From the IMG/VR virus record IMGVR_UViG_2541047715_000004: 64,000 nt of DNA. One strand, written 5' to 3'. The notes under the pieces were generated by a model that searched no databases, was not told the DNA's origin, and saw only the letters and a list, made by a program, of their open reading frames with translations. The stretch comes from a virus (lineage: Duplodnaviria > Heunggongvirae > Uroviricota > Caudoviricetes). Positions 4,816 to 62,066 of the stretch are shown here, piece after piece. Each line of letters begins with the position of its first letter. Within the stretch, counting starts at the first letter, position 1. The translations under genes and the position numbers were made by a program.

Positions 4816-5030
4816 GTTTACAGTAAAATTTATATAAGTTAGTATCTACCTATCATGAAGATTTTTATTGAATACTTGTTACTCATCGTTTCAATAGCTT
4901 TTGTCATCGACTGCATTTTCACTGGTGTCATTCGTAAAGTCTTTTCCCCGGTGCACGACGTAGTCATAAACGCTTTGGCTATCGTGCTCGTATTTAATTC
5001 AGCATTTGATGTAATCAAAGAGGTGGCAGC

Positions 5031-8218: not shown

Positions 8219-8472
8219 CCCTCCAGATCGTATATTGGCGTAGATAGAATCTACGCCCCCTCAAAATAGCTCTCATAGCGTTCTACAGTGATCCTGTCTT
8301 ATTTTTAGTCATACAGACAAGCAAAGTTGCGCCACGATAAATAGGTATATACTTACTTATAAATTTTGTATATTAAGGCGCTCGTTTCATTCCTAATATA
8401 CCGTTATGCATAGTTGTTTACCTCCTCATTGCTCTTAGAATTTGTATCAAAATAACCACAAAGGAAAAATAC

Positions 8473-13016: not shown

Positions 13017-13050
13017 TTTCATTGATAGGTAAGTGCTTATCTATTAACAT

Positions 13051-13080
13051 GGGCCACTATATTTAGTGGCCCTCTTTATT
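13051..13080 (+). terminator. rho-independent terminator
   Basis: Hairpin gggccactatatttagtggccc followed by T-rich run. Confidence 0.5.
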
Positions 13081-16731: not shown

Positions 16732-17601
16732 ATGAACTTTACCAAACTGACTGACCACCTGAAACTTGCCACCGATCGACTCATTGGATTTAAGCCAGAA
16801 CCATATGAGTTGCATGAAGGCCATGGTGTAGCCACTGAAAGTATTTACAAGATGGTCGATCAGTTTCATGAACTCTTCCAGCATCCGAGACGCGTTATGC
16901 CGACACCAGAGCTGCTTCGTCTCCGTGCAAGCCTGATTCATGAAGAAGCTGTAGTGGAAGGTATTCCAGCCGCAATGAATGGGGATATTGAGCAACTGCT
17001 GGATGCAATGGCCGACTTTTTATACGTTGGTGTTGGTACGATGGTCGCCATCAAAGGTGGTATTTCTACCGGCATGACCTATTACACGCAGGAACAGAGC
17101 ATTGATCGCTTTATGCAGACAATTTTTGTGCCCGGTAACACTGTTTTCGATGATATGGCAATGCCATTTCAGGAAGCTCGTGAGGCGTCATGTATGCTCG
17201 AAGAGCTGGCAGATAAACTTGAGAACAAGACTGTTAAGGATTCTGAGCTGATTCAGGAACTGCGCCGTGTCATGAACAAAATCTATGTGGCGTGCATGAT
17301 GACCTATCGACTGGCTGATTTCCTCGGTATCAATGTAGTCGAGCTGGTTGGCGAAATTCATCGGTCTAACATGACAAAATTATGGCCTGCTGATGTAGAG
17401 GAACGTCGCCAGGCTGTGGCCAACTGCAAATACGACTCTTCAGACCTGGGATTTCGCCATGCTGATGGTACCGATAAGATGATCGGTTTTCGAATTTCCG
17501 ATGGAAAGATTCTGAAGTCTCCAACCTATAGTGATGTCGATTTATCCTCCTTTGTTGAGCAAGCTAAAGCCTCAGCAATGTACGGAATGATCAAAAAATA
17601 A
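16732..17601 (+). CDS. putative MazG-like all-alpha NTP pyrophosphohydrolase
   Basis: Two EExxE...D-like acidic helix motifs (LIHEEAVVEG...DIEQLLDAMAD; QEAREASCMLEELADKLE). Confidence 0.35.
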   Translation: MNFTKLTDHLKLATDRLIGFKPEPYELHEGHGVATESIYKMVDQFHELFQHPRRVMPTPELLRLRASLIHEEAVVEGIPAAMNGDIEQLLDAMADFLYVGVGTMVAIKGGISTGMTYYTQEQSIDRFMQTIFVPGNTVFDDMAMPFQEAREASCMLEELADKLENKTVKDSELIQELRRVMNKIYVACMMTYRLADFLGINVVELVGEIHRSNMTKLWPADVEERRQAVANCKYDSSDLGFRHADGTDKMIGFRISDGKILKSPTYSDVDLSSFVEQAKASAMYGMIKK

Positions 17602-17669
17602 TTGTAGGTAGTTATCTATCTGTGTATATTTAACATGCGTAATAAAACTCTGGAATGACTATTCGTTTT

Positions 17670-17696
17670 GGTGGCCTATGGCCACCATTTTTTTAT
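17670..17696 (+). terminator. rho-independent terminator
   Basis: Hairpin ggtggcc-tat-ggccacc followed by TTTTTTT. Confidence 0.65.
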
Positions 17697-17771
17697 CTGT
17701 CTGGTCTTGTTCTCTCAATGAATGTAAACTCACACGATGAATAAGTAATTACTTATATTTGTGAGGTTTTT

Positions 17772-22549: not shown

Positions 22550-22608
22550 ATTGCCAGACATAAAATCAAATGCAAAAATAGGTAATCACTTACCTATCGA
22601 GAAAGACG

Positions 22609-23223: not shown

Positions 23224-23282
23224 AGCCTGCTTCTGTATATATAAATAACTACATATTAATTATTAATATACGGAAGCAGGCT
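23224..23282. repeat. palindromic element CCTGCTTCTGTATATA...TATACGGAAGCAGG (copy 1)
   Basis: 16-bp arms around an AT-rich loop; near-identical arms recur at 52944-52999. Confidence 0.6.
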
Positions 23283-23388: not shown

Positions 23389-23619
23389 ATGTCATACCCG
23401 ACTAATGTCGTTGCGCTCGTAGAGAGCGATTTTCTGGCCCAGGCTCGTGAAATGATGAAAGATCGTGAGCAGGCTTTCAACTTGTACGAATGGGCAATTA
23501 AGTGCTTGCATCTTGGGGAGCATCGCGAACTTGTTGAACAGCTTTTAGGTGAGTTGATCAACGAGGTGTTTGCCTTGAATGTTCAACTACATGGTCGAAA
23601 AAATAATCAATCGAAATGA
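23389..23619 (+). CDS. hypothetical protein
   Basis: Start taken at MSYPTN Met with AAGGAAA RBS. Confidence 0.4.
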   Translation: MSYPTNVVALVESDFLAQAREMMKDREQAFNLYEWAIKCLHLGEHRELVEQLLGELINEVFALNVQLHGRKNNQSK

Positions 23620-24205
23620 TAGATAAGTACAAACTATTCATAAAGTGAATTGTAAGTGCTAAGATCTGATAGTTTCCAGTCGTAGACTGGAGGCTCGACC
23701 TGATGGGTGGGGGTAAGCGTCACTGGCGTCAGGTTTAAAAAAGCTCACTACCAGCGTAGAACCGGCACCGTTTAGGGGTTGGGGAAGGGGGAACCAAAGT
23801 GAGCAGAGACAAGGGTCACTTTATGATTGTCGAGTCTGGGGTGTTTCGAGAGGTTGAATCCAGTACTCCCCTTCATAAAGTGTGGGAAGATCTCGGTTCT
23901 GGGGTGCTGTCATCCATAACTTCCCAAGCCTAAGCTGGCAGTAGACTTAGGTCATAACTTTTCAGGTTATGAAACGACCAGGTTGGTGAGGAAATTTTGT
24001 ACTCACCTCCCTGGGAGAGTATTACCTGAAAAGACAACCTCTCACTTCGTTCGAGGTGAACTTCACTCACTTCGTTCGTTCAGTTCAGGTTTATAAAAAC
24101 CTGTTCTGGGAAGTAATTTGTTTATTTTAATAATTATTAACACGCACGCGTGTGCGCACGCGCGAGGAAAAAAAAATCGGCGCGGCGCTTGATTCAGGAG
24201 TTTAT

Positions 24206-24796
24206 ATGACGACGAAGACACCAGCCCGATCGCAAGCAAAAACTCGCAAAAATGACAAAAACAAAAATTCTCCCCGCACCAATTCCACAACGCCTGTCGT
24301 AGAGTTCAATCCCCAGCTTAAAACCGTGAAAATCTTCAGTGATGGCTCTTGCCTTAAAAATCCGGGTGGCCCGGGCGGTTACGGTATAGTTCTCCAGTAT
24401 GGTGGTGAGGAACGCGAGTTCTCAGATGGTTTTCATAGCACCACCAATAACCGCATGGAGATGATGGGGGCACTTATCGGGCTGGAGCGTTTGAAATATC
24501 CATGCAACGTTATTTTGTACTCTGATAGCCAGTATCTGAAAAACGGCATGACACAGTGGATGAAATGGTGGAAACGCAATGGATGGATGACTTCTGACAA
24601 AAAACCGGTAAAGAATGTTGATCTGTGGAAGCGTCTGGATGAGGCCGCAAGTCGACATAATGTTCGCTGGAAGTGGGTTAAAGGTCACGCCGGGCATCGT
24701 GAAAATGAAATATGTGATCGACTCGCGAAGATCGCAGCTTTTTCAGCAGCAGATATGCCTCACAAGAAAGATATTGGTTTTGTTTATAACAAGTAG
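24206..24796 (+). CDS. rnhA: ribonuclease HI with N-terminal basic extension
   Basis: Core [21 protein letters not shown]...NNRMEMM...SDSQYL...[19 protein letters not shown] parallels E. coli RnhA; start taken at ATG 24206 with AGGAG RBS. Confidence 0.85.
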
Positions 24797-24944
24797 TAAG
24801 TAAGTGTTTACCTATCATTTTAAATCATGTATCTTATCAGCGTCAGGATGACAATGTGTCGGTAAGACACAGTTCCAGGATGGAACGAGAAAGGCGGCTG
24901 GCGATCGCCAGCCGCAACTCTTTCTGACACTGGATGGAGTCCAC

Positions 24945-28614: not shown

Positions 28615-31600
28615 CTATATCTGCCCACCTACTCCTTTGAACTTTTCAATAAACGTGACGATTTTCTGGAAAACGGTCTGTTTTTTCGTTTTATATTGCG
28701 GGTTTAACGGACTAAGTTTTGGTAATGTCTCGTTTAATTCTGTGCCATTTTCGGTGGCGTATTCGCGTTTTAAAGACGTGCGAATATAGCGTTTCGCCGC
28801 CTCTTCATTGAGATTTTCTTCTTTTATCAATGCTTCTGCTTCACGTTGCTGTTCGCGTTGAGCAAACGTAAAGAATGCCTCAATGATACTGGCTTTGTCT
28901 GGTAAATCATCCAGGTTCGTTTGCTGAATAAAATCGACCACCAGGCCCTCTTTCGCCCGGTTCCCCAGGCTTGAACGAATTAAGCGTTTGACCTCTTCGA
29001 TCATTTCGCCCTTGCCTTTATTTTGTCTGTTGTGTTCGAAAATCAGTCCAAGGATATAATCCAGGTTTATTTCCTGAGACTTCAGCAAATCGACCTCAAA
29101 AACTACGTCATCCCAGTCAGTGGTTGATTTCTCTTTTTTCTCAGCTTCTTTCTCACGGCGCTGCCAGTCGCGAATATCGTTATAGGCAGAACGATAATCC
29201 TGAATCTTGCGTTCAGCAGGGAGACGAATTGTTTGCAATTCAGCGAACTTTTCATCATCCACATAATGTTCTGCTTTGAATTTTTCTACCGCAACAGGAT
29301 CGCTAAGATCGATTTGTTGCAGGGCTTTCAGCGTGGCAAATTCATCATAGTTTTGCAGGATGTTCTCGGCACGCAGGTATTCACCAAACAGTTTTACGAA
29401 GTCTTTCTTCTCTTTTTCACTTTCAATACTGGCAGGGTCAGGGAACCGTTGTTCCAGTTCTGAAACTACTGCCATAAAGCCGCGTTTAGCTTCACCAGTG
29501 GCAGCATCTGTAAAGCCTTCCATATACTCAGCATAACTCTTTTCTAACACCACATTTTTAGTATTTTTATCACCAAACAGCGTTATGGCATCAATGGTTG
29601 AGCGTTCCAGATCCCGAAAAGTGACGATGTTACCGAAGGTTTTAGTAGCGTCATAAATGCGGTTGGTACGGGAGAATGCCTGCATCAGGCCGTGAAAACG
29701 CAAGTTTTTATCGACGAATAGCGTGTTCAATGTTGGAGCGTCGAAGCCGGTTAAAAACATCCCAACGACAATTAACAGATCGATATCCTGATTTTTAACC
29801 CGTTGGGCTAAATCACGATAGTAGTTCTGAAAACCGTTACTGTCGGTGCTGAAGTTAGTTTTAAAATAGCTGTTATACTCACGAATTGCAGCGTCAAGAA
29901 ACTCTTTAGCACTGCTGTCCATTGCGCTGGTATCAAAAGTTTCATCGGAAATTTCACCAATGGCATTTTGTTCTTCATTGGCGGCAAAGGAGAAGATTGT
30001 TGCAACACGCAGCGGTTTATAGGTAGCCGATTTATTAGCTGCTTCCTCTTGTAACCGTTTAAACGTCGCGTAATAGGCTTTCGCGGCATCCACGCTACTC
30101 ACTGCCAGCATGGCATTAAAGCCTTTGGAACCTGGGAAAGTACGGTGGGTCTTCTGGCGGAAGTTATTCAGAATATATTGCGTAATTTCCTGTATACGCA
30201 TGGGATGAAGAAATGCCTGCTGATTTTCAGCCGCACTCAGTTTTTTCTCGTCGGTTTCTGTCTCTAAAGATTTAAACTGTGGCCGCACATCGTTGTAGTC
30301 CACCTTGAATTTGAGCACTTTTTCATCACGAATCGCATCGGTAATTACATACGAATGCAATTCACGACCAAATACGCTGGCGGTCGTTTCTGAGCCTAAG
30401 GCGTTTTCCGGGAAAATAGGTGTGCCGGTAAAACCAAACTGATAATAGCGTTTGAATTTCTTCTTCAGGTTTTTCTGCGCTTCTCCAAACTGGCTGCGGT
30501 GACATTCATCAAATATAAACACCACTTGCTGATTGTATACAGGCAGGTCGCTTTCTGCTTTCATCAGGTTATTAAGTTTCTGAATAGTGGTGACGATAAT
30601 TTTGTTATCGTCCTTATCCAGATTGCGTTTAAGACCTGCGGTATTTTCCGAGCCGTTGACGCTGTCTGGCGAAAAACGCTTATATTCATTCATGGTCTGG
30701 TAATCGAGGTCTTTCCTGTCGACCACGAAGAAGACTTTATCAATAAAGTCCAGCTCTGTTGCCAGACGCGCGGCTTTAAAGCTGGTGAGGGTTTTACCTG
30801 AACCGGTAGTGTGCCAGATATACCCACCGCTTTCCGGTTTTGACCAGTTCTTCGCTGTAAAGGAACTCTTAATTTTCCACAGAATGCGCTCAGTGGCGGC
30901 AATCTGGTACGGTCGCATCACCAGTAGCGTTTGGCTAACATCGAATACGCTGTAGTTCACTAAGACATTAAGCAGGGTATGTTTCTGGAAAAAGGTGGCG
31001 GTAAAGTCTTTGAGGTCTTTAATCAGCGTGTTGTCTGATTTCGCCCAATTCATGGTGAAGTCAAAACTGTTTTTATCGCGCTTTGTCGTGTTGGCAAAGT
31101 AACGGGTATCGGTGCCGTTGGAAATGACAAACAGTTGCAGATACTTAAACAGAGAATTTTCGCTGTTAAAACTCTCTTTGCTGTAACGATGTATCTGGTT
31201 AAAGGCCTCACGAATCGCCACGCCGCGCTTTTTCAGTTCGATTTGTACCAGCGGTAAGCCATTAACCAGGATCGTGACGTCATAACGGTTAGCATGAGAA
31301 CCCGTCTGTTCAAACTGCTGGATAATCTGCACCTTGTTGCGCATGAGATTCTTTTTATCTATCAAATAGATGTTCTCAAGACGCTCGTCATCAAAAATAA
31401 AGTCGCAAATATAGTCGATATGGATTTTACGGGTCTTATCCAGGATGCCATCGCTCGGGTTATCCAGATACTGCTCCGTGAAACGCCGCCATTCGCTGTC
31501 ATTAAACACCACACCATTGAGGTTCTGAAGCTGTTCCCGAACGTTGGCCAGCATCGCCGACTGAGATTTTACGGAAATAAATTCATAGCCCTGATTCCGC

Positions 31601-31731
31601 AGATCCTGAATCAGTTCACGTTCCAGGTCCGATTCGCTCTGGTAGCTGTCGCCTGTTTGCTCGGCTTTGATGTACTTATCAAGAACGATAAAGTTATTGG
31701 ATTCAGCAATGGTGTGTGTCTGATGAGTCAT
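28615..31731 (-). CDS. hsdR: type I restriction enzyme R subunit (type IC, EcoR124-like)
   Basis: 1038 aa; N-terminus [22 protein letters not shown] matches my recollection of EcoR124I HsdR; helicase motifs [16 protein letters not shown]. Confidence 0.9.
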
Positions 31732-31852
31732 AGCGCATCCTTTGTGCCGTCTGGCAAGGGCCGGAAGGGCTTTAAGGGCGACTTCCGGCGTGTAAAAAAT
31801 AGTCTCTATATAGACCGGATGTTAAGGTGATCCGGTCGGTAGCAATGGTCAA

Positions 31853-33100
31853 TTAGTTACTGATAGTTTCAGGTTTGGGAAAACTGAACAGTAAATCACG
31901 ATAGTACTCGTATTGTTTCTGGCGCAACTCGATTTCACGCGGAAGACCTTCGGTGATGGAATTGGTCAAAGCATCAAATTTATCCAGTAATTTCACTATT
32001 TTTTGTTGTTCAACTAGCGATCTTTCAGGAGAATCAGGAAATGGTACTGGTATCATAAGTTTTCTTAAGTTATCATTATAAAGTCTTTTAATAGTTCCAC
32101 CTTCAGATATTCCCCATTTTGCTATTTTATAGAAATAGAATAAATATTTATTTAAAACTATTTTTTCATTATTTTCAATCCAGACAATATTGCTATCCTG
32201 GAAATATGATTCCCTACCATCAAATATAACAGTCCTGCCGATGGTCCCACTGGCAGAAATCAATACTTCGCCAACTTTAGGATAACTATATTTTTCTTTA
32301 AATTCATTAAATAGTTTTCTAGATATATAGGAATCGGGTTCCTTACCAAATGTCCCAATTTTATAAAATGGAATCTCTCCCTCAGAAGATGTTTGTGATT
32401 TTAGGATTCGTTTACACATACGAACTTCACCAATTTCCCCCAAAGCTTTCCACTCAACCTCACCCTCTTTAAAACTCAACAACTGGTCGCGATAGTAGTT
32501 GTATTGTTTTTTACGCATGCTAAGCTCAGCGGTAAGCTCAGCGGTAAGTGCAGTAAATTTATCCAGAATCCTGACGATTTCAGACTGGATAGCCAGCGAC
32601 TTTTCCGGGTTGTTGGGGCAAGGGATGGGGATAAGTAATTTACCTATATCTTTAGCATACAAATGATAAACAGTAGAACCTTTAACCATTTGCAATATCT
32701 TTTTTTTGTTATTTATTATGAAATTACTTAGATATCTACCATCAACACCAGAGCATCTAATAATCAAAATATCGCCGCCTAAAATAACGCCACTTTCTTG
32801 AATGCAACTAGCTGTAGCCAAACCTCTTGGTGTAACGTCTGACGTTGGCATTAGAACATCATTTTTTTCAGATAGAATTGACTCATTGATTGCTTGGTTT
32901 GTTTTTGAGCATACTTTGTCAATTATGGGACCATAATGAGTGAAAAGCTCACCGTAATGAATACAATATCTATTGCCATCTGGAGTTATTTTTTCTTTAG
33001 GTAAAGACTTCCCTTTTAAAAAAGTTGCTAATTTATTTAATGCTACCCACTCAACCTCAGCCCCATCCAGCAGTTTTTCCAGATAACTCAGCTCGCTCAT
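31853..33100 (-). CDS. hsdS: type I restriction-modification specificity subunit (type IC)
   Basis: Two target-recognition domains separated by conserved central region containing TAELTAEL; conserved C-terminal [22 protein letters not shown]. Confidence 0.9.
32522..32545 (-). repeat. 2 x 12-bp tandem repeat encoding TAEL-TAEL in hsdS central conserved region
   Basis: aagctcagcggt repeated twice on + strand (ACCGCTGAGCTT on coding strand). Confidence 0.85.
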
Positions 33101-34659
33101 GCCTGTACCTCGCTACCTTCAATCTCAGCAACAATCGCATCAATATCTTTACGCAACTGGTCGATTTTGCTGACCGTGGTTTTCAGCTCAGCATTCAGCT
33201 CAGCGATATCGATAATTTCGCGAGTATCTTTCGCTTCCACATAGCTGCTCACCGACAGGTTATAGTCATTCGCGACAACAGTCTCAAACGCAACAGATTT
33301 CGCCAGATGAGCAACATCTTCCTTGCTGGCAAATACCTGCATAATCTGTTCGATATGAGCATCGGTCAGAATGTTGTTGTTAGTCTCTTTTTTGAACAGT
33401 TCGCTGGCATCAATAAACTGAACTTTGGTATCCGTTTTATGTTTAGACAGCACCAGAATATTGACGGCAATAGTGGTGCCAAAGAACAGATTCGGTGCCA
33501 GTGAAATCACGGTTTCGACATAGTTATTGTCGACCAGATACTGACGGATTTTCTGCTCCGCGCCGCCACGGTAAAAAATGCCTGGGAAGCAGACAATCGC
33601 AGCGCGACCTTTGGCCGAAAGATAGTTCAGCGCATGTAATACAAACGCAAAGTCAGCTTTGGATTTGGGGGCCAGAACGCCAGCCGGGGCAAAACGTTCA
33701 TCGTTAATCAGCGTCGGGTCATCGCTGCCAATCCATTTCACCGAATACGGCGGGTTAGAAACGATGGCATCAAACGGTTTTTCATCTCTGAAGTGCGGCT
33801 CAGTCAGTGTATTACCCAGCTTGATATCAAACTTGTCGTAGTTGATGTTGTGCAAAAACATGTTCATACGCGCCAGGTTATAGGTCGTATGGTTGATTTC
33901 CTGACCAAAAAAACCTTCTTCGATGATATGGTCATCAAACTGTTTTTTCGCCTGCAACAACAGCGAACCGGAGCCTGCTGCCGGGTCGTAGATTTTGTTA
34001 ACGTGGGTCTGCCCGTGCATAGCCAGTTGTGCAATCAGCTTAGAGACGTGCTGCGGTGTAAAGAACTCGCCGCCGGACTTACCGGCATTCGCCGCATAGT
34101 TAGAAATCAGGAACTCATAGGCGTCACCGAACAGGTCAATCTGATGTTCATGGAAGTCACCAAGTTTTAGCCCTTCAACCCCTTTCAGAACCGCAGCCAA
34201 GCGGGCATTTTTATCTTTAACGGTGTTACCCAGGCGGTTACTGGTGGTATCGAAATCAGCAAACAAACCTTTGATGTCAGCTTCTGAAGGATAACCGTAA
34301 GCAGAACTTTCGATAGCAACGAAGATGCTGTTTAAATCTGCATTCAGTCTGTCATTAGTATTTGCTTTCGCAGCTACGTTGCAGAAAAGCTGACTGGGGT
34401 AGATGAAGTAGCCTTTAGTTTTGATGGCATCGTCTTTAATGTCATCAGTAATTACGCTGTCATCCAGTTTCGCATAACAGATACTGTCATCACCGGCTTC
34501 AATATAACTGGAAAAATTTTCGCTGATAAAACGGTAAAAAAGCGCGCCCAAAACGTACTGCTTAAAATCCCATCCATCGACTGAACCCCTGACATCGTTA
34601 GCAATTTGCCAGATCTGGCGATGAAGCTCTGCACGTTGTTGAATACTTGTCATTTTCAT
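33097..34659 (-). CDS. hsdM: type I restriction-modification methyltransferase subunit
   Basis: N6-adenine MTase motifs including NPPYS; stop overlaps hsdS start (ATGA). Confidence 0.9.
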
Positions 34660-35762: not shown

Positions 35763-35788
35763 AGGCGGTGCAATGCACCGCCTTTTAT
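35763..35788. terminator. bidirectional terminator hairpin
   Basis: Hairpin aggcggtgc-aat-gcaccgcct with T-run, between convergent umuD-like and mrp genes. Confidence 0.55.
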
Positions 35789-36888
35789 CACACTGCGCGG
35801 AATGCGATTTCGCCAGGTATTACTTCACCTTGCCAATACATTTGGGCGGCAACGCGATCTGCGAGGTCACGATAAATAGCCGTAAATTCGCTATCTGGAC
35901 GACTAATAACGGTTGGTGTTCCGTTATCCAGATCTTCACGAAGAGAGATATGAAGTGGCATTTGGCCTAACAACTGCGTGTTGTATTTCTCGGCCAGTTT
36001 CTGTGCGCCACCGGTGCCAAAAATTGGCTCGTGATGACCGCAGTTACTGCAAATATGCACACTCATGTTTTCGACGATACCCAGTACCGGCACTTCGACT
36101 TTTTCGAACATCACAATGCCTTTCTTCGCATCGATCAGCGCGATGTCTTGCGGCGTAGTTACCACAACCGCACCAGTTACAGGAATGTTCTGCGCCAGCG
36201 TCAACTGAATATCACCAGTGCCCGGCGGCATATCGAGAACGAGATAGTCCAGATCAGGCCATAGAGTTTCCTGCAACATCTGCATCAGCGCCTTGCTGGC
36301 CATCGGTCCACGCCACACCATTGCATTGTCGTCGGTGACCAGATAACCAATAGAGTTGGTTGCCAGGCCATGAGACATGATAGGTGCCATGTGAGTACCG
36401 TCAGGTGAGGTTGGACGTTGGTTTTCCGCGCCCAGCATGGTTGGAATTGATGGACCATAGATATCGGCATCCAAAATACCAACTTTCGCACCTTCAGCAG
36501 CCAACGCCAGTGCCAGGTTTACCGCCGTGGAGGATTTACCCACGCCGCCCTTGCCTGAGCTGACGGCGATAATGTTCTTAACGCCATTAATGCCTGGTTG
36601 GTTTTTGACGCGCTTAAGCGTGGCAATGTTGTACGACAGCTTCCAGTCAATAGCCTTTGCGCCAGTGATACGGAGCAGATCACCACTACATTGCTCTTTC
36701 AGGTCTTCAAAAGGCTTATTCCACACGAAAGGCATGATTAGTTCGACATGCAGTGTGTCATCCATCAACGCAACATGGTGTAACGCTTTAAGCGTAGTCA
36801 GGTTGTGTTTCAGGGTTGGGTGCTGAAAATTAGCCAGCGTACCGGCTACCATTGCTCTCAGGGCATCCGGCGATTTGGACTCGCTCAT
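35788..36888 (-). CDS. apbC: iron-sulfur cluster carrier ATPase Mrp/ApbC
   Basis: Deviant Walker A SGKGGVGKSS, CxxC motif ICSNCGHH; divergent from metG as in E. coli. Confidence 0.9.
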   Translation of the reverse strand: MSESKSPDALRAMVAGTLANFQHPTLKHNLTTLKALHHVALMDDTLHVELIMPFVWNKPFEDLKEQCSGDLLRITGAKAIDWKLSYNIATLKRVKNQPGINGVKNIIAVSSGKGGVGKSSTAVNLALALAAEGAKVGILDADIYGPSIPTMLGAENQRPTSPDGTHMAPIMSHGLATNSIGYLVTDDNAMVWRGPMASKALMQMLQETLWPDLDYLVLDMPPGTGDIQLTLAQNIPVTGAVVVTTPQDIALIDAKKGIVMFEKVEVPVLGIVENMSVHICSNCGHHEPIFGTGGAQKLAEKYNTQLLGQMPLHISLREDLDNGTPTVISRPDSEFTAIYRDLADRVAAQMYWQGEVIPGEIAFRAV

Positions 36889-37045
36889 CCCGTCTCCTTT
36901 ATTTTAATTTGCGCAATTGTCGCCTTGTAGTGTACTCCAGCTACGACATTTAATCATTTATGAGAAATGCTGTTATCACATGGCAGACATAAGGCCATTT
37001 TGTTACTATCAAGCCCCTTTTCACTACAAAGAAGTAATGCCTACT

Positions 37046-39079
37046 ATGACCCAAGTCGCGAAGAAAATTCTGGTGACGTGCGCGCTGCCGTACGCTAACG
37101 GCTCAATCCACCTCGGCCATATGCTGGAGCACATCCAGGCTGATGTCTGGGTTCGTTACCAGCGAATGCGCGGCCACGAGGTTAATTTCATCTGTGCCGA
37201 CGATGCCCACGGTACGCCGATCATGCTGAAAGCACAGCAGCTTGGTATCACACCGGAGCAGATGATTGGCGAAATGAGTCAGGAACACCAGACTGATTTC
37301 GCAGGCTTTAACATCAGCTATGACAACTATCACTCGACGCACAGCGAAGAGAACCGCCAGCTGTCTGAGCTTATCTATACTCGCCTGAAAGAGAACGGTT
37401 TTATTAAAAACCGCACTATCTCTCAGTTGTACGACCCGGAAAAAGGCATGTTCCTGCCGGATCGTTTTGTGAAAGGCACCTGCCCGAAATGTAAAGCGCC
37501 AGATCAATACGGCGATAACTGTGAAGTCTGCGGCGCAACATATAGCCCGACTGAATTGATCGAGCCGAAATCGGTGGTTTCTGGCGCTACCCCGGTAATG
37601 CGTGATTCCGAACACTTCTTCTTTGATCTGCCTTCTTTCAGCGAAATGTTGCAGGCATGGACCCGCAGCGGCGCGTTGCAGGAGCAGGTGGCGAACAAAA
37701 TGCAGGAATGGTTTGAATCCGGCCTGCAACAGTGGGATATCTCCCGAGATGCGCCTTACTTCGGTTTTGAAATTCCGAACGCGCCGGGCAAATATTTCTA
37801 CGTCTGGCTGGACGCGCCGATTGGCTACATGGGTTCCTTCAAGAATCTGTGCGACAAACGCGGCGACACTACCAGCTTCGACGAATACTGGAAGAAAGAC
37901 TCCACCGCCGAGCTGTACCACTTCATCGGTAAAGATATCGTTTACTTCCACAGCCTGTTCTGGCCTGCCATGCTGGAAGGCAGCAACTTCCGCAAGCCGA
38001 CCAACCTGTTTGTTCACGGCTATGTGACGGTGAACGGCGCGAAGATGTCCAAGTCTCGCGGCACCTTTATTAAAGCCAGCACCTGGCTGAATCATTTTGA
38101 CGCCGACAGCCTGCGTTACTACTACACTGCGAAACTCTCTTCGCGCATTGATGATATCGATCTCAACCTGGAAGATTTTGTTCAGCGCGTGAATGCCGAT
38201 ATCGTGAACAAAGTGGTTAACCTGGCCTCCCGTAATGCAGGTTTTATCAACAAACGTTTTGACGGCGTGCTGGCAAGCGAACTGGCTGACCCGCAACTGT
38301 ACAAAACCTTCACTGATGCCGCTGAAGTGATTGGTGAAGCGTGGGAAAGCCGCGAATTTGGCAAAGCTATCCGTGAAATCATGTCACTGGCTGACCTGGC
38401 TAACCGCTATGTTGATGAACAGGCTCCGTGGGTGGTGGCGAAGCAGGAAGGCCGCGATGCCGACCTGCAGGCGATTTGCTCTATGGGCATTAACCTGTTC
38501 CGCGTGCTGATGACGTACCTGAAACCGGTACTGCCGAAACTGACTGAACGTGCAGAAGCATTCCTGAATACAGAACTGACCTGGGATGGTATCCAGCAAC
38601 CGCTGCTGGGCCATAAAGTGAATCCGTTCAAGGCACTGTATAACCGTATCGATATGAAACAGGTGGAAGCACTGGTGGAAGCATCCAAAGAAGAAGTGAA
38701 AGCCACAGCTGCACAGGTAACTGGCCCACTGGCTGACGACCCGATTCAGGAAACCATCACCTTTGACGACTTCGCCAAAGTTGACCTGCGTGTGGCGCTG
38801 ATTGAAAACGCGGAGTTTGTCGAAGGTTCTGACAAACTGCTGCGTCTGACACTGGATCTCGGTGGTGAAAAGCGTAATGTCTTCTCAGGCATCCGTTCTG
38901 CTTATCCAGACCCACAGGCACTGATTGGTCGTCACACCATTATGGTGGCTAACCTGGCTCCGCGTAAAATGCGCTTCGGTATCTCCGAAGGCATGGTGAT
39001 GGCTGCTGGCCCCGGCGGGAAAGATATCTTCCTGTTAAGCCCGGATGCTGGTGCTAAACCAGGCCACCAGGTTAAGTAA
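37046..39079 (+). CDS. metG: methionyl-tRNA synthetase
   Basis: 677 aa, near-identical in pattern to E. coli MetG (HIGH motif [13 protein letters not shown], zinc knuckles CPKC...CEVC); true start ATG 37046 inside the longer listed ORF. Confidence 0.95.
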
Positions 39080-42877: not shown

Positions 42878-42907
42878 GCCCCGCCATCCTTACGGGGCTT
42901 TTTTGTA
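42878..42907 (+). terminator. rho-independent terminator
   Basis: Hairpin agccccg-ccatccttac-ggggct followed by TTTTTT. Confidence 0.65.
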
Positions 42908-42968
42908 TTGTAAGTACATACTTACGATCATAGAATATAAAAATAACCAATACACTACGGAGAGTGAA

Positions 42969-46531: not shown

Positions 46532-47053
46532 TTAAAACGGAAGGATTCGTTCAACCCAATCGAAGAAAATAAGTATTTTTCTACCGTCTTCCAACTTAAG
46601 TGTGACTAGACAGGCGTCAACGCCATCTGACGTTCCCTCAATTTCGCGACCGTCTGCCATGTAGACCCTTATAGATTTGCCGTTTTGGTAAGCCTGACGA
46701 CATATCTTAAAAAAGTCACGACGTGATGGCTGATTAACCATCTGTTCATTGTTTAGCGTTAGTCGACCTGTGAATGAAGTGTCAACCTCTTCTATGCCCG
46801 ACTCAATTGTGCTAATGCGCTCAAGAGGGAGCCTTATACGATTTGTGTTGCTAAGCGGATCTGGTGTGAGGTTCAGCTTATTTCTTGCGCTCAATAGCCC
46901 GTAGACATACATGCAAAACACTTGGCCGTCTTCGAGAGTGACTCTTACAGGAAATTTTGCACTCCGCCAGAAGAGCAAGGTGCGCTCAGCATGTTCGTAG
47001 TCTCGCGGCCAGACTTCAGCCGGTATGCCGTAGGTGATGTCCAATGTTCTCAT
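46532..47053 (-). CDS. hypothetical protein
   Basis: 173-aa ORF overlapping upstream gene by ATGA; terminator hairpin aataaccggacttagccggttatt downstream. Confidence 0.5.
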   Translation of the reverse strand: MRTLDITYGIPAEVWPRDYEHAERTLLFWRSAKFPVRVTLEDGQVFCMYVYGLLSARNKLNLTPDPLSNTNRIRLPLERISTIESGIEEVDTSFTGRLTLNNEQMVNQPSRRDFFKICRQAYQNGKSIRVYMADGREIEGTSDGVDACLVTLKLEDGRKILIFFDWVERILPF

Positions 47054-47823: not shown

Positions 47824-48102
47824 TTACGGCAGTTTGCTTAGAATTTGCTCTAAATCTTCCTTTGTCATATTAGAGTTCTCATAGATGCGCATGATTTTCT
47901 CACGAGCCTTAGCAGAGACTCCAACGGCAGATGAAACTTTGTCAAATTCAGCCATTGTCATCGCTTCCAGAATGGTATTGATAACTTCAGCCTTAGACAT
48001 TTTGATGTTTTTTTCTTTTAGTTTCATTTGAAACTTTCCAAGTTTGTCATTGGCCTTATCGGACAATGCCACCTGACAATAAGTTGTTTTCTTTTCGCTC
48101 AT
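47824..48102 (-). CDS. small hypothetical protein
   Basis: 92 aa, immediately downstream of helicase gene; terminator hairpin gtgcggcaa...ttgccgcac follows on minus strand. Confidence 0.45.
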   Translation of the reverse strand: MSEKKTTYCQVALSDKANDKLGKFQMKLKEKNIKMSKAEVINTILEAMTMAEFDKVSSAVGVSAKAREKIMRIYENSNMTKEDLEQILSKLP

Positions 48103-49664: not shown

Positions 49665-49746
49665 AAACCTCTTTCCTTAGTGCCTTTTGTATGTTATTTG
49701 GCTATTATAATAAGTAAGTGATTACTTAGTGGATTGTAGCAATAAA

Positions 49747-50427
49747 ATGGATGTAAAAATCACGATTTTGCAGGTTGATGTTGCCAACCTTCGCCCGAAT
49801 ACCTGGAACACCAATTCGGTTGGTGCGCAGAATTTTGAAAAACTGAAAGGTTCTATCGAAAAATTGGGCTTTTTTAAGCCAATTTTGGCTCGTGAACTTG
49901 AAGATGGATTTTTTGAAATCCTAGGCGGCGAACATCGCTGGCGTGCTGCTATTGAGCAAGGAATTTCAACGGTTCCGGTGCTTTCTGTGGGCAAAATTAG
50001 CGATGTCGTAGCTAAACAGATGTCACTGGTGGACAACGAGCGATACGGTGAAGACGACCAAATCGCATTGCAACGCTTCATTGAAGAAATTCAGTCAGAA
50101 CTTGACTATCAACTGTCTGAAATCGCCCCGTATGACGACGAAATCTCGATGGTTTTAGCAAAAGAGGCGGCAATCGACCTTGAAGCACTGGAGGCGTTGT
50201 CTCGTGGTAGTGATGAGCCTGTCGATACCGACAAACGAGAGAAAACCGAACGTGTGGGGGCGGAACATCAGACCATGCGCTTCAAAGTAACTTTCGATGC
50301 GTCAGATCGTGTTGCAGAAACCATAAAAAACATCATCAAAGAGCAGGCTATTAACACCGGTAATGAAATGGAGAACGCTGGTGAGGCTCTGGTGTGGCTG
50401 GTCGACTACTACAAGGAGCGTATGTAA
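49747..50427 (+). CDS. ParB/Srx-fold nuclease-domain protein
   Basis: ILGGEHRWRAA matches ParB box II type motif; start taken at MDVKITIL. Confidence 0.55.
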   Translation: MDVKITILQVDVANLRPNTWNTNSVGAQNFEKLKGSIEKLGFFKPILARELEDGFFEILGGEHRWRAAIEQGISTVPVLSVGKISDVVAKQMSLVDNERYGEDDQIALQRFIEEIQSELDYQLSEIAPYDDEISMVLAKEAAIDLEALEALSRGSDEPVDTDKREKTERVGAEHQTMRFKVTFDASDRVAETIKNIIKEQAINTGNEMENAGEALVWLVDYYKERM

Positions 50428-51095
50428 TGACCAAAAAGTTTGAAATCGTATATCGCGACCCGGCAGATCTTATTCCCTATGAGATGAATGCCAAAAAGCA
50501 TGATGAACAGCAGATCCGAGATCTGGCCGCAGCCATTAAAAAGCGCGGATTTGACCAGCCAATTACGGTCGATAAGAACGACGTAATTATTACTGGCCAC
50601 GGCCGCCGTGAGGCTGCAATTTTTGCTGGACTTGAGCGCGTGCCGGTTATTGTTCGCGATGATCTGAGTGATGACGAGGTACGTGCAAAGCGCCTTGAAG
50701 ATAACCGACTTGCCAGCATTGATTACGATGCAATTAAGCTACAGAAAGAGCTTGAGTCGCTTGTTCTGGACGATATCGAGGTTTTCGGCTTCGAAGAGCG
50801 TGAGTTGAATGTTCTCGTTGGCAGTATGACAGAAGAAATGGACACCGACTCGCTAGTTATCGATCTTGGCGAAGAAACTAAACGACAGAAGGATGAACAC
50901 ACCGAGATCAGTCGTGAAGTTGCAGCGGAAGAAGTACGTGTTGTCGACGTATTGGGCTTTAAAACGCTCCCTGCTGGCTCTGCCATTGTTGTTGGTGATT
51001 TGCTTGCCCATATGGAAGAAATGACGGGAGAAAGCGGGGTAGACGCATTTGTGGCATATGCGGAGAAGATCTCTTCCGGGGAGATGGCTGCATGA
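50427..51095 (+). CDS. second ParB/Srx-fold domain protein
   Basis: IITGHGRREAA motif; start taken at MTKKFEIVY, overlapping upstream stop. Confidence 0.55.
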   Translation: MTKKFEIVYRDPADLIPYEMNAKKHDEQQIRDLAAAIKKRGFDQPITVDKNDVIITGHGRREAAIFAGLERVPVIVRDDLSDDEVRAKRLEDNRLASIDYDAIKLQKELESLVLDDIEVFGFEERELNVLVGSMTEEMDTDSLVIDLGEETKRQKDEHTEISREVAAEEVRVVDVLGFKTLPAGSAIVVGDLLAHMEEMTGESGVDAFVAYAEKISSGEMAA

Positions 51096-52653: not shown

Positions 52654-52920
52654 ATGACGTTAACCGATAAACAAAAGGACATCATCAAAACGCTCAATCT
52701 CGGTTATGAGCGAGGTCATCTACTTGACCTGGACGAATTGCTTGAAGTTTTGCCGTACAAGACAACCAAGCAAAGTATCCAGTTCTCAATTCGCGCTCTG
52801 ATAAAAAAGGGGCTGGTGGAGAAAGGGCATACGCGCCAACGCAGTGACAATCGCTATCACCGCCGGACTCTTGGGTTAACCACTTTAGGTCGAGCCAAAG
52901 CGAAGTTACTGGTGATGTAA
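52654..52920 (+). CDS. small putative DNA-binding protein
   Basis: 88 aa, basic C-terminus; helix-turn-helix-like segment. Confidence 0.35.
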   Translation: MTLTDKQKDIIKTLNLGYERGHLLDLDELLEVLPYKTTKQSIQFSIRALIKKGLVEKGHTRQRSDNRYHRRTLGLTTLGRAKAKLLVM

Positions 52921-52943: not shown

Positions 52944-52999
52944 ACCTGCTTCTGTATATAAATAATAAGTAACTTATTAAATATATACGGAAGCAGGCT
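52944..52999. repeat. palindromic element CCTGCTTCTGTATATA...TATACGGAAGCAGG (copy 2)
   Basis: Near-identical arms to 23224-23282. Confidence 0.6.
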
Positions 53000-53746: not shown

Positions 53747-55002
53747 TGGCAATCCCGTCCTCGCTCAGTCTTGTGCAACTGCATTCTGGACAGATGAAAG
53801 TCTTCCAGTCTCCGCATCGATTTAAAGTTGTTTGTGCTGGTCGACGCTGGGGAAAATCCCGGTTGTCGATCTCCACTATTATTCGTGCGGCGGCAAAGGA
53901 AAAAAAGCAAAGAGTCTGGTATGTCGCTCCTACTTACCAGATGGCTCGCCAGATTTTGTGGGACGATCTACAGGAAGTTCTGCCTCGTAAGTGGGTTAGG
54001 AAAAAGAACGACACCACGATGACAATCGTGTTGAAGAACGGTTCGGAGATCGCCCTCAAAGGTGCTGATAAGCCTGACACTCTGCGCGGCGTAGCGTTGC
54101 ATTTTGTAGTGCTTGATGAATTTCAGGATATGAAGGCTGACACCTGGTACAAGGTGTTACGACCTACTCTTTCATCGACACGCGGCGGTGCACTGATCAT
54201 TGGTACGCCAAAAGGCTTCTCGGAATTTCACAAACTGTGGACTATAGGCCAGAACGTAGAGCTGCAAAGAAAGGGACAGTGGAAGAGCTGGCAGTTTGTA
54301 ACTGCCGATTCTCCGTTTGTACCTACGGCGGAAATTGAAGCTGCTAAGAACGATATGGACCCGAAATCGTTCGCTCAGGAGTACCTGGCGAGCTTTGAGA
54401 ACATGTCCGGGCGCGTTTACTACCCGTTCGATCGTAACGTGCATGTAAAACCGCTTCAGTTCAACCCTCGGTTGCCTATATGGGTAGGGCAGGACTTCAA
54501 CATTGACCCGATGTCTTCAGTAATTTTGCAACCTCAGCCAAATGGTGAGCTATGGGCAATTGATGAATTGGTGCTCTTTTCCTCTAACACGGCAGAGGTT
54601 TGTGATGAGCTTGAGAGACGCTTCTGGCGCTGGAAATCACAGATAACGGTATTTCCAGATCCGGCAGGTGCTTATCGCCAACATGCTCGCGGGGAGTCTG
54701 ACGTCGACATATTCAAAGAGAAGGGATTCTTACGTGTCGATTATTCGAAAAAGCACCCGCCAATTGCGGATCGTGTTAATGCTGTTAACCGAATGCTGAT
54801 GTCCGCATCTGGAGATATCCGGCTGTATATCGATCCGAAGTGCAAGCATTTGATTGATTCACTGGAAAAAGTCATCTACAAGCCTGGAACACGAGATATG
54901 GATAAGACAGGTGGCATTGAGCATAGTGCAGACGCATTGGGCTATCCAGTACATCGTAGGTATCCAGTCAAAAACCGTGTTATTCTTGGTGGTTCTCGAT
55001 AG
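53746..55002 (+). CDS. terminase large subunit
   Basis: Walker A-like VVCAGRRWGKS, Walker B VVLDEF, C-terminal nuclease-like region with conserved Asp residues. Confidence 0.75.
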   Translation: MAIPSSLSLVQLHSGQMKVFQSPHRFKVVCAGRRWGKSRLSISTIIRAAAKEKKQRVWYVAPTYQMARQILWDDLQEVLPRKWVRKKNDTTMTIVLKNGSEIALKGADKPDTLRGVALHFVVLDEFQDMKADTWYKVLRPTLSSTRGGALIIGTPKGFSEFHKLWTIGQNVELQRKGQWKSWQFVTADSPFVPTAEIEAAKNDMDPKSFAQEYLASFENMSGRVYYPFDRNVHVKPLQFNPRLPIWVGQDFNIDPMSSVILQPQPNGELWAIDELVLFSSNTAEVCDELERRFWRWKSQITVFPDPAGAYRQHARGESDVDIFKEKGFLRVDYSKKHPPIADRVNAVNRMLMSASGDIRLYIDPKCKHLIDSLEKVIYKPGTRDMDKTGGIEHSADALGYPVHRRYPVKNRVILGGSR

Positions 55003-55028
55003 GTAAGTAATTATCTAAGGTTATTCAA

Positions 55029-56603
55029 ATGGAATTGAACGACAAACAAATTAAGGATCTGGTGGCGCGACGCCACCCGGAATACGAAAAGAAAAAAGAA
55101 CATTGGGACTTCCTCGCCAGCACTTACGCTGGCGGGCGTGGTTGGTTTACAGACAATATCTTTCGTTACTTTAAAGAGGGAGATCAGGAGTTTAAGGAGC
55201 GAGTTGAACGTGCTTATCGCTTCAACCACACTCGTGAGGTGGTAAACCTCATCAACAAATATCTCTTTAAAGAAGACATTCATAGAAATATCGAAGAGGC
55301 ACCAGAGCAGATCCGCAATTTCTGGAAACGTGCGACTCGCCAGAATGCCTCTATTGACTCATTTATGGCCGCTATTGATTTGCAGTCGTCTATTTACGGT
55401 CGCATATGGGTTGTTGTCGATAGCACGATGAGTGGTGATGTTGAGTCAGTAGCTGACGAGAAAAAGAAAGATGCTCGCGCCTACGCCTACTGGATTTCAC
55501 CTCAGCAAATGCTGGATGTGGCATGGGACGACGACGGGAATATGTTGTGGGCGTTAATTGTGGAAGTCGCTCGTGATGACGCAGATCCTTTTACTTCTAC
55601 AGGTCAGGAATACCAACGTTATCGTCTGTGGACACAAAACGAGTGGTATCTGTTCCGTGAGGAAGTGAAGAAGGGCGCTGGTGGAGCAGGTCGCCGTCAG
55701 GCAAAAGTTATTTTAGAGGATAGCGGTGAGCATAATCTCGGCGTAGTTCCTGTGTTTCCTGTTGATTGTATTGGAGAAAGTGAATCACCGTATTTCAGCC
55801 CATCGTTGATCGATGATATCGCTTATCTTGATCGTGCGGTTGCAAACTATCTGTCAAACCTTGATGCCATTATTCAGGATCAGACATTTAGCCAGTTGGC
55901 TATACCGGTACAGTCGCTTTTACCTGGTGATGAAAACCACACTAAAGTGCTTGAAATGGGCACAAAGCGAGTCTTCACCTACGATTCTGAAGGTGGAAAC
56001 CAGCCGTTTTATCTGTCACCAGACCCGAAACAAGCTCAGATGATCATCACTACGATTAAGACGGTGATTAACGAAATCTACCATTCAGTTGGTGTAGCTG
56101 GTGAGCGAACGAAGCAGGACAACGCACAGGGAATCGATAACTCATCTGGTGCCGCAAAAATGTATGACTTCCAGCGTGTAAATAGCTTGCTTGTCACAAA
56201 AGCAGAGCGTCTGGAAAGGGCTGAACGCCAAATCATGCTACTGGTTGCGAAATGGATGGGGGTAGATCTGGACGAAGACCACTCATTAATTGCGTATCCA
56301 GAAAGTTTCGATATTCGTGGCCTTACTGATGAATTTTCTGTTGCCGAGAAACTGTCGTTACTTCAGGCACCGGACTCTGTACGTCGTCACCAGATGGAAA
56401 TGCTGATTGAGAAGATTTTCCCGAACATCACTGAGGCGATGAAGAAGGAATTTGATAAAGATCTCTTGAATTTTCCGCCAAAAAATGATCTAAATACTCT
56501 TGAAAATAAGTCAGTACTTACTTATGATCAAGGCGCAGCCCAAGAAAGCGGGCAAGATCAACCCCGAGGGAATGGGGACTCATCTACTCAAGAGAACGAG
56601 TGA
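55029..56603 (+). CDS. portal protein
   Basis: 524 aa, immediately after terminase, before scaffold and capsid genes. Confidence 0.6.
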   Translation: MELNDKQIKDLVARRHPEYEKKKEHWDFLASTYAGGRGWFTDNIFRYFKEGDQEFKERVERAYRFNHTREVVNLINKYLFKEDIHRNIEEAPEQIRNFWKRATRQNASIDSFMAAIDLQSSIYGRIWVVVDSTMSGDVESVADEKKKDARAYAYWISPQQMLDVAWDDDGNMLWALIVEVARDDADPFTSTGQEYQRYRLWTQNEWYLFREEVKKGAGGAGRRQAKVILEDSGEHNLGVVPVFPVDCIGESESPYFSPSLIDDIAYLDRAVANYLSNLDAIIQDQTFSQLAIPVQSLLPGDENHTKVLEMGTKRVFTYDSEGGNQPFYLSPDPKQAQMIITTIKTVINEIYHSVGVAGERTKQDNAQGIDNSSGAAKMYDFQRVNSLLVTKAERLERAERQIMLLVAKWMGVDLDEDHSLIAYPESFDIRGLTDEFSVAEKLSLLQAPDSVRRHQMEMLIEKIFPNITEAMKKEFDKDLLNFPPKNDLNTLENKSVLTYDQGAAQESGQDQPRGNGDSSTQENE

Positions 56604-58413: not shown

Positions 58414-58445
58414 TCAGTGCAGTAGATAAGTAATTATCTATGTTA

Positions 58446-61608: not shown

Positions 61609-61992
61609 GTGTTTATTGAAGCGTTTGCAAGTTTGATGCAGAAGGCAAAGATTGGCACGGTCGGGACTGACATTTTCTGTCACTACTTGCCTGCCAATGT
61701 GAAATCTGGCGTCCTGCTTATTAATCCAAATACCGGCATCAGCATCGATCATGAGCTACAGGGCTTTTATCACGAATCATTCACAATCATTGTGCGTGGT
61801 TCGTCAATTACTACGACGGTTGAGAAAGCCAATAAAATCATTGAGATGTTTCCAGTAGAGGAAACGGAATCTGGTGGTGTGTATTTTCGACTTGTACGAC
61901 CGATGGCGATGCCAATCATTTATCCCAAAAATGATGGGGCATTAATAGAAGCAGGCATTCCTGTTGAATTTGCTGGCTATTTATTGAATTAA
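61609..61992 (+). CDS. hypothetical structural protein (GTG start)
   Basis: GAGAGG RBS then GTG at 61609; alternative start ATG 61633. Confidence 0.35.
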   Translation: MFIEAFASLMQKAKIGTVGTDIFCHYLPANVKSGVLLINPNTGISIDHELQGFYHESFTIIVRGSSITTTVEKANKIIEMFPVEETESGGVYFRLVRPMAMPIIYPKNDGALIEAGIPVEFAGYLLN

Positions 61993-62066
61993 CTCAATTG
62001 GTAAGTATATACTTACTATTAGCGCAATGAATGCGTAGAATTAACGGAAAAAGGAGTTTTCCATCA

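Follow-up and report, generated by a model that had tools for sequence, protein, structure and literature searches.

Dispersed 20-bp palindromes of SSU5-like phage-plasmids as candidate operators of one prophage repressor

Introduction

A 64,000-nt stretch of tailed-phage DNA (Caudoviricetes; IMG/VR record IMGVR_UViG_2541047715_000004), here called the window, carries the perfect palindrome ATAAGTAATTACTTAT at 17741-17756, shortly upstream of a thymidylate synthase gene. Similar palindromes precede many other genes in the window, and the original prediction, made from the letters alone, saw in them a shared operator or promoter element defining a regulon. We asked what this element is, how far it extends among related genomes and which protein would read it.

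By sequence identity the window is part of an SSU5-like phage-plasmid. Escherichia phage Cyrano (pLF82) is 99.4% identical to it over 6 kb, several E. coli plasmids of ~110 kb (e.g., strain D9 plasmid A) are 100% identical to an 8-kb stretch, and Salmonella phage SSU5 and Klebsiella phage-plasmids are 76-77% identical. A window position equals the Cyrano position minus 54858, and the window runs past the ends of the Cyrano record into the terS-terL-portal-capsid-tail genes. The window genes lie nearly all on the + strand, many with intrinsic terminators between them. The capsid gene of SSU5-like phage-plasmids was detected on ~950 plasmids of PLSDB.

Architecture and placement of the palindrome

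The element, designated class 1, is a 20-base palindrome, a-TAAG-TAAG-NN-CTTA-CTTA-t, in a single fixed register. Alignment of 11 sites gave the consensus tG-A-TAAG-TAAG-T-A-CTTA-CTTA-T-Ca, that is, four 4-bp units in symmetric order. All 11 places named in the original prediction hold the motif, and the variable gap of N(0-4) described there proved to be an artefact, since the apparently different gaps belong to sites that retain only two or three of the four units; the palindromes at 17741-17756 and 42910-42925 retain TAAG-N6-CTTA. Exact TAAGTA-N(0-4)-TACTTA is present in four copies in the window, against 0.01 expected from dinucleotide-preserving shuffles.

A weight matrix trained on the 11 window sites only was applied to the 44 kb of Cyrano not covered by the window, where it detected nine matches above 15 bits against 0.065 expected, all nine of them intergenic. 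With a refined matrix we detected 30 sites in the whole Cyrano genome (0.88 expected); SSU5 has 29 (0.31 expected) and the window 17 (cut-off >13 bits). The genome-wide motif scan suggested earlier as a check returned a strong excess over expectation, and the copies are many, far above chance and spread over the genome, as is typical of dispersed operators.

Non-coding DNA makes up 13% of the Cyrano genome, yet it holds 28 of the 30 Cyrano sites. The distance from a site to the next start codon, given as 20-60 bp in the original prediction, really spans 1 to ~160 bp. At many sites the upstream stop codon is overlapped by the palindrome or lies 0-14 nt ahead of it. None of the sites in the Cyrano list precedes repA, parA or the toxin-antitoxin genes. 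The sites overlap promoter-like sequences or lie between cistrons among the lytic genes and leave the maintenance genes free, which is again the placement of dispersed operators; all promoter calls in this work are consensus matches.

Conservation among relatives

The SSU5 sites stand at the same places as those of Cyrano, a site inside the portal gene included. In an ungapped comparison of 24 orthologous Cyrano and SSU5 sites the 20-bp core is 87% identical and the distal flanks 51-53%, and on this measure the core is under purifying selection.

The motif was also detected in distant relatives. An Acinetobacter baumannii plasmid (NZ_CP096701.1), whose capsid protein is 59.5% identical, carries 34 copies of ATATT-AGTAAG-CG-CTTACT-AATAT, and GTAAG-N2-CTTAC occurs in it 11 times against 0.11 expected. 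The core AGTAAG-NN-CTTACT is enriched as well in IMG/VR relatives of ~60% G+C (high-GC loci, all of them fragments), where (G/A)TAAGTAAG-NN-CTTACTTA stands clear above background. Single matches in the exact-pattern scans of IMG/VR are mostly due to chance and become informative only once loci are ranked by site density, and this ranking recovered almost only relatives of the SSU5-like phage family.

The syntenic relative Pseudomonas phage nickie has zero copies of the motif, even at two mismatches. The class-1 core was not found in the 50 kb examined of Rhizobium phage RHph_N1_10, which instead carries the palindrome TCAATCAA-TA-TTGA(T/C)TTA, built of 4-bp units as TCAA-TCAA-TA-TTGA-(T/C)TTA. 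Its copies (10848, 23119, 25853, 26814, 29092, 33028, 33927, 34696 and 39901 in locus L253) occupy equivalent places: between terL and portal, past the capsid gene and between tail genes. It looks as though the operator specificity has changed genome-wide in RHph_N1_10 with the design kept, which is the pattern expected of a protein and a site that co-evolve.

Promoters at the sites and the proposed regulation

On the + strand of the window, 9 of 33 promoter-like matches overlap a palindrome, at 8 of the 17 sites, versus 1 of 29 on the - strand; the chance expectation is ~0.4 overlaps for the whole window and ~3 if all matches were intergenic. In the canonical arrangement the palindrome fills the 17-bp spacer and its last TA gives the first two bases of the -10 hexamer. 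The two best promoters of the window in this register are TTGAAA-17-TATTAT at 2875 and TTGAAA-17-TATGAT at 56500. Against the G+C-rich background of the high-GC relatives and RHph_N1_10, promoter hexamers stand out readily. Many palindromes of the high-GC relatives occupy exactly the 17-bp spacer of near-consensus promoters (TTGCAA-17-TACAAT), for example in gatttaggc-TTGCAA-g-TAAGTAAGyrCTTACT-TACAAT, and the RHph_N1_10 palindrome has the same spacer position in promoters of the TTGACG-17-TACCAT type, for example in TTGACG-gtcaaTCAATATTGAtt-TACCAT. Fifteen complete promoters of the high-GC relatives are oriented with the genes and two are mirrored, a count that includes orthologous copies from related contigs and thus not only independent cases. 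Promoters this near to consensus should not need an activator.

The offset between palindrome and promoter in the window ranges from +2 to -27, and such a variable register suggests operator-like behaviour. The information content of the Cyrano flanks shows no fixed -10 or -35 beyond the extended palindrome. Several sites are 1-12 nt away from a start codon and several contain the upstream stop codon, so that they cannot be the promoter of the next gene. The variable register, the strong stand-alone promoters and the intercistronic gaps together form the pattern of a repressor and its operators, not of an activator site. The regulon of the original prediction is supported in its core idea, by the enrichment, the intergenic placement, the conservation at orthologous places, the presence in distant relatives and the overlap with gene-oriented sigma70-type promoters, as a shared operator or promoter-associated element linking DNA-metabolism, ParB-like and structural genes; the wording "promoter element" is its weaker half, because the register of the palindrome relative to the hexamers differs and the position of some sites precludes any promoter for the gene that follows.

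Both arms of the palindrome are conserved symmetrically. Watson-Crick pairing between the arms at variable positions shows no excess over independently varying arms, and the predicted RNA hairpins are weak (mean -4.1 kcal/mol), three sites being essentially without a fold. These three observations point to recognition of the element as double-stranded DNA by a symmetric reader, for which a dimeric protein is the simplest candidate.

We hold, with somewhat more confidence than doubt, that the palindromes are dispersed operators of one phage-encoded dimeric prophage repressor. The sites are observed, as are their excess over chance, their positions, their conservation, their distribution among the relatives and their overlap with promoter-like sequences; that a protein would bind the sites and would repress from them, and which protein this might be, we infer. 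The repressor would keep the lytic genes silent in the plasmid-prophage state. At about half of the sites it would sit on the core of a gene-oriented sigma70-type promoter and exclude RNA polymerase, and in the short intercistronic gaps the bound repressor would be only a roadblock to read-through or an extra anchoring site.

Candidate reader of the palindrome

The best candidate, and most likely the reader of the class-1 sites, is CYRAN_45 (WP_001282577-like), a 128-aa helix-turn-helix (HTH) protein of the XRE type encoded beside a tyrosine recombinase gene ~11 kb outside the window. CYRAN_45 is annotated as a putative repressor and its expression is 10-fold above the local background in LF82 lysogens; among the Cyrano genes expressed in these lysogens it is the only one with a class-1 site close upstream (PMC9928086 Table 1). 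This site is a weak copy of the core, 28 nt from the start codon. In four enterobacterial repressor types (65-100% identical) TTTACA-16-TAATAT is followed directly by GGTAAG(C/T)ACTTACC upstream of the gene, with variable surroundings, and the palindrome core falls at ~+1 of the predicted CYRAN_45 promoter, an arrangement that suggests negative autoregulation through a weaker operator.

CYRAN_45 homologues are present in 865 PLSDB plasmids, that is, in practically every relative known in the plasmid state, and by genus they are nearly as numerous as the capsid genes (Klebsiella 348 vs 340, Enterobacter 92 vs 91, Yersinia 63 vs 62, Salmonella 49 vs 49). A gene of this type is also present on the E. 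coli plasmid that shares 8 kb of identical sequence with the window. The homologue of the Acinetobacter plasmid is 32% identical when aligned over the full length and 38% identical within a local match of 71 residues, that of the high-GC contig L045 36% (E 6e-15), and the Acinetobacter and high-GC genes have class-1-like sites upstream. The start of the recognition helix is conserved (KN-x-N) in the XRE-HTH homologues (KNANNLSLIK, NQNMVSFIV, KNQNMITMLK). A homologue is absent from nickie and from SSU5, which was called virulent in its genome announcement. The Thauera plasmid pTX1 has an HTH homologue but was set aside as an unrelated conjugative plasmid.

Two small proteins proposed as binders in the original prediction fit poorly. 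All relatives, the motif-less nickie included, encode a homologue of the 88-aa winged-helix protein (52654-52920), and the putative recognition helix of this protein varies among motif-bearing lineages; the Acinetobacter relative carries the motif but lacks a homologue of the 92-aa protein (47824-48102). The FljA-like protein (46532-47053) was rejected as well, being enterobacterial only and thus unable to read a motif common to Acinetobacter, as was a phage sigma factor, which is annotated only in the Acinetobacter plasmid and has a weak Pfam match.

The FljA-like gene (- strand) matches Pfam PF03614, "Repressor of phase-1 flagellin" (FljA), over its full length (E 1.4e-68). SSU5 has retained the gene, whereas the Acinetobacter plasmid and Pseudomonas phage nickie lack it. 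As a flagellin regulator carried by a phage-plasmid, its product might have host flagella or phage mRNAs as targets. The sigma-70 family factor annotated in NZ_CP096701.1 (L011 18089-18754; Pfam Sigma70_r2, E 0.0026) is encoded between cobS and dnaE, a place taken by a 180-aa uncharacterised gene in nickie and by none in the SSU5 group.

Alternative explanations

Several observations weigh against the repressor reading. The operator of CYRAN_45 itself consists of the inner GTAAG-NN-CTTAC units only (11.6-13.7 bits). SSU5 keeps all 29 sites without the candidate repressor, for which a recent loss has to be assumed. The phyletic test covers five lineages, three with motif and HTH gene, one with neither and one (RHph_N1_10) of which only 50 kb were examined. 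The core is unchanged across lineages whose capsid proteins are only 40-60% identical, which is unusual, as immunity determinants normally diversify. A good -35 in the canonical register accompanies just 3-4 sites of the enterobacterial genomes, and most sites show nothing but a -10-like TATCAT, a hexamer that belongs to the extended palindrome; many sites may therefore overlap no working promoter, or need an activator.

Activator-dependent promoters of the P1 late type are the main alternative, which we consider rather unlikely. The -10 would be preceded by an inverted repeat instead of a -35, and a phage-encoded activator would read the repeat and recruit or remodel host RNA polymerase in lytic growth. 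The 11 late promoters of P1 share a conserved 9-bp inverted repeat to which Lpa binds (PMC10695390). According to the features of the P1 record (GenBank NC_005856) and our scan of P1, these Lpa- and SspA-dependent promoters are AAGTTACTT-N4-TACAAT or TACCAT. Their box has nearly the same letters as the AAGT/ACTT centre of class 1, likewise lies just upstream of the -10 and likewise precedes many genes of an enterobacterial phage-plasmid; in all three motif-bearing lineages the AAGT/ACTT centre is followed 3 nt later by TATCAT, TATAAT or TACAAT. Most enterobacterial sites lack a -35, and several lie directly past terminators, where a new promoter is needed.

The resemblance has limits. The P1 late box spans 9 bp around a central base and is separated from the -10 by 4 nt, whereas the class-1 element is 18-22 bp long with an even centre, 3 nt from the -10-like hexamer. 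The register of class 1 varies, unlike that of P1 late promoters, and the best promoters near the sites are in different registers; the strongest examples already have a near-consensus -35 and -10, many sites have no usable -10, and more than half of the high-GC sites have no TAnnnT in register. The likeness to a -10 is mirrored on the other arm and so belongs to the palindrome. Expression of the next gene cannot be driven from the terL/portal gap or from sites 1-12 nt away from a start codon, and a core at ~+1 of the HTH gene's promoter would be an odd place for an activator. A tblastn search for Lpa, at the level of single sequences and not of profiles, gave a best E of 0.29 in Cyrano and no match in SSU5, the Acinetobacter plasmid or nickie. 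Both the box geometry and the lack of an Lpa homologue by this search separate the sites from the P1 late promoter class.

A broader reading, improbable in our judgement, takes the palindrome as more than an operator of immunity, with (TAAG)2-NN-(CTTA)2 in the 17-bp spacer of sigma70 promoters as an ancient, family-wide promoter-spacer code, by which a conserved phage factor would both block and license host RNA polymerase; the P1 late box AAGTTACTT would be its shortened relative. If this were true, one site class would time almost the whole lytic programme.

We regard it as quite improbable that the palindromes are non-transcriptional DNA sites, either loading sites of the ParB-like proteins (49729-51095) for silencing, condensation, partition or packaging, or recombination hotspots at module boundaries. 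Two ParB_N-domain genes adjoin a class-1 site and are conserved in every lineage, the end of the first ParB-like protein resembles a ribbon-helix-helix fold (by eye only), and the 4-bp units recall the site arrays of ribbon-helix-helix proteins; the intergenic placement could be due simply to the stop codons that the motif contains. The ParB-like genes are, however, equally present in the motif-less nickie, the orientation-specific tie to promoter hexamers is not expected of such sites, and sites at orthologous positions have not been recently mobile.

It is very unlikely that the transcribed palindrome acts as an RNA hairpin for processing, mRNA stabilisation or translational operation between cistrons. 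Any palindrome can fold, some sites reach -6 to -7 kcal/mol with z below -4, several adjoin Shine-Dalgarno sequences, and a few high-GC copies cap longer stems whose flanks are unrelated but complementary. Against these stand the arms without covariation beyond independence, the low mean stability with three unfolded sites and the spacer palindromes, which lie upstream of the promoter's own transcript; what is conserved is the sequence, not the pairing. Intrinsic terminators were rejected, the class-1 stems being A+T-rich (mean -4.1 kcal/mol), without a T run and next to true terminators, and so were mobile intergenic repeats (repetitive extragenic palindromes, or elements like miniature inverted-repeat transposable elements), with 24 of 24 paired Cyrano and SSU5 sites at orthologous places.

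Individual sites of the window

Six of the window sites were absent from the first list, namely 4834, 17600 (weak), 23241 (weak), 23619, 52958 (weak) and 56506. From the left end, the palindrome at 2881-2900 (28.1 bits) lies downstream of a terminator (2846-2866) and in the 17-bp spacer of the promoter-like TTGAAA-17-TATTAT (2875-2903, +), and that at 4834-4853 (24.1 bits) overlaps the promoter-like TTTATA-16-TATCAT (4829-4856) and abuts the next start codon. The copy at 8341-8360, sbcD following 112 nt downstream, had been called weaker and is among the best (26.6 bits).

The best site of the window, 13025-13044 (29.4 bits), starts 8 nt past the ruvC stop codon and overlaps TTGATA-17-TAACAT (13022-13050), from which transcription is predicted to begin within the 5' arm of a terminator hairpin (13051-13072) upstream of nrdA. 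The same order of palindrome and hairpin occurs at 58422 and past the capsid gene in the Acinetobacter, high-GC and Rhizobium relatives. Such a hairpin could halt upstream transcripts but not the new one, whose start would fall in the 5' arm.

A weak copy at 17600-17619 (14.1 bits) overlaps the stop codon of a mazG-like gene. The flagged site, 17737-17756 (22.4 bits), which contains the perfect palindrome named at the outset, is downstream of a terminator (17669-17687) and has TATATT in the -10 register without a -35; the GTG of the thymidylate synthase gene is 15 nt downstream. The palindrome at 22578-22597 (27.0 bits) is 11 nt upstream of a dam-like gene, at ~+1 to +20 of the promoter-like TTGCCA-17-AAAAAT (22551-22579). 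An upstream stop codon is overlapped by 23619-23638 (19.7 bits), and the stop codon of an RNase H-like gene by 24796-24815 (26.3 bits).

Directly past a terminator, the site 42906-42925 (14.0 bits in the common register) holds the perfect palindrome GTAAGTACATACTTAC at 42910-42925 and overlaps the promoter-like TTGTAA-17-TAGAAT (42908-42936), covering its -35 and spacer. The palindrome at 49710-49729 (21.7 bits) is in the divergent region between a UvsW-like helicase gene (-) and a ParB-like gene (+). The 26-nt terL/portal gap is filled by 54999-55018 (21.6 bits), which overlaps the terL stop codon and the portal Shine-Dalgarno sequence and so leaves no room for a promoter serving the portal gene. 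Inside the 3' end of the portal gene, 56506-56525 (26.1 bits; identical in SSU5) lies in the spacer of TTGAAA-17-TATGAT (56500-56528), and the next gene is 99 nt downstream.

The site at 58422-58441 (22.1 bits), 8 nt past the major capsid stop codon, is directly followed by the terminator hairpin GGGTGGGC-TATA-CGCCCACCC-TTTTT. Upstream of the tail tube gene, 61997-62016 (21.1 bits) contains the perfect palindrome GTAAGTATATACTTAC at 62001-62016 and overlaps the promoter-like TTGAAT-18-TATACT (61984-62013). Two weak class-1-like stretches, 23241-23260 (19.6 bits) and 52958-52977 (16.3 bits, upstream of terS), form the apices of two copies of a separate long inverted repeat, and their membership in class 1 is doubtful.

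Other repeats and conserved genes

The long inverted repeat, CCTGCTTCTGTATATA...(A+T-rich apex)...TATATACGGAAGCAGG, is present three times per genome, in the window at 23232-23279 and 52951-52996 and in Cyrano at ~31150. The apex of the repeat is weakly like the class-1 motif. One copy lies just upstream of terS, and nickie has a comparable repeated element upstream of terS. The long inverted repeat is possibly an origin, a pac-related site or a terminator.

We detected a second intergenic palindrome family (class 2), (T)AAGA-AAACAA-N-TTGTTT, with 13-bp cores in the window at 4030, 15468, 25694, 26423, 39164, 39215, 42507, 43410, 44174, 53036 and 53061. Exact AACAANTTGTT is found 12 times in Cyrano against 0.36 expected, always intergenic and 11-35 nt upstream of start codons. 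The copies often stand right after GATAAT-TAACACCA and probably lie in 5' leaders just past the -10. The two classes occupy different intergenic regions (class 1 before nrdA, class 2 before nrdB), and class 2 was not seen in the Acinetobacter relative. Class 2 is probably the site of a second regulator, for which the FljA-like protein would be a guess.

A block directly upstream of terS/terL (window 49729-51095, 52654-52920) is conserved in every relative examined, virulent or temperate. It encodes a UvsW-like helicase (-), two ParB_N-domain proteins, the first of which retains a GGEHRWRAA motif, two ABC-type ATPases and the small winged-helix protein. Cargo differs between otherwise near-identical plasmids: a complete type I restriction-modification system (HsdR 1038 aa, HsdS 415 aa, HsdM 520 aa) is inserted at window 28615-34659 (- strand), where Cyrano has a DUF4942 gene and ea-type genes. 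The window also has a gene of an NUBPL/Mrp-type P-loop ATPase (Pfam PF10609) at 35788-36888 (-), annotated as MinD in Cyrano and expressed in lysogens there, and a full methionyl-tRNA synthetase gene at 36917-39079 (+).

Discussion

The closest functional parallels to the proposed operator set are found in other temperate phages. The C1 protein of P1 is a single prophage repressor whose operators are scattered over a ~100-kb plasmid-prophage and overlap sigma70 promoters of many units, and its gene is autoregulated through operators at its own promoter. The class-1 system would share with it the many operators of one prophage repressor on a phage-plasmid and the autoregulation, predicted here from sequence. 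It differs in that the operators of P1 are asymmetric sites of 17 bp (ATTGCTCTAATAAATTT) and C1 does not belong to the XRE-HTH proteins, whereas the sites described here are palindromic and occur also inside late structural operons. No C1 homologue was found by tblastn (E at least 2), and the operator sequence differs too, so the sites fall outside the strict C1 operator family.

The stoperators of mycobacteriophage L5 (gp71 repressor, Cluster A) number ~30 per genome and occupy short gaps between the genes of both early and late operons, in many cases over stop and start codons; one true operator is at a promoter, and the virulent relative D29 keeps the sites without the repressor. Copy number (~30) and intercistronic gaps are alike, and SSU5, with sites kept and candidate repressor absent, parallels D29. 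The L5 sites are 13-bp asymmetric, monomer-bound and active in one orientation only, whereas class-1 sites are symmetric 18-22-bp palindromes, many of them on promoter cores, and the repressors are unrelated; the strict stoperator class therefore does not include them. The phiC31 repressor likewise has a ~17-bp palindromic site (CIR) at many intergenic loci, only some copies of which are at promoters; host, sequence and repressor family differ from the class-1 system.

The motif strings were found in no paper of the literature searched, and searches on SSU5 and pHCM2 regulation returned nothing on the class-1 element. We favour, at slightly better than an even chance, the operator reading, by which the class-1 set would be a new dispersed operator regulon of a known functional kind in a clinically common, little-studied phage-plasmid family. 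SSU5-like phage-plasmids can carry resistance genes and are very frequent among clinical Enterobacteriaceae and Acinetobacter; the group takes in pHCM2, from Salmonella Typhi, as well as the phage part of pMT1, from Yersinia pestis.

Taken together, the ~30-site operator set and the named candidate repressor provide a testable model of the switch from lysogeny to lytic growth, which the papers searched do not describe. Such a set would allow the prediction of immunity groups, the recognition of virulent derivatives such as SSU5 and the design of promoter-operator engineering parts, and the specificity swap in the Rhizobium phage would be a natural case of the genome-wide co-evolution of a protein with its many sites.

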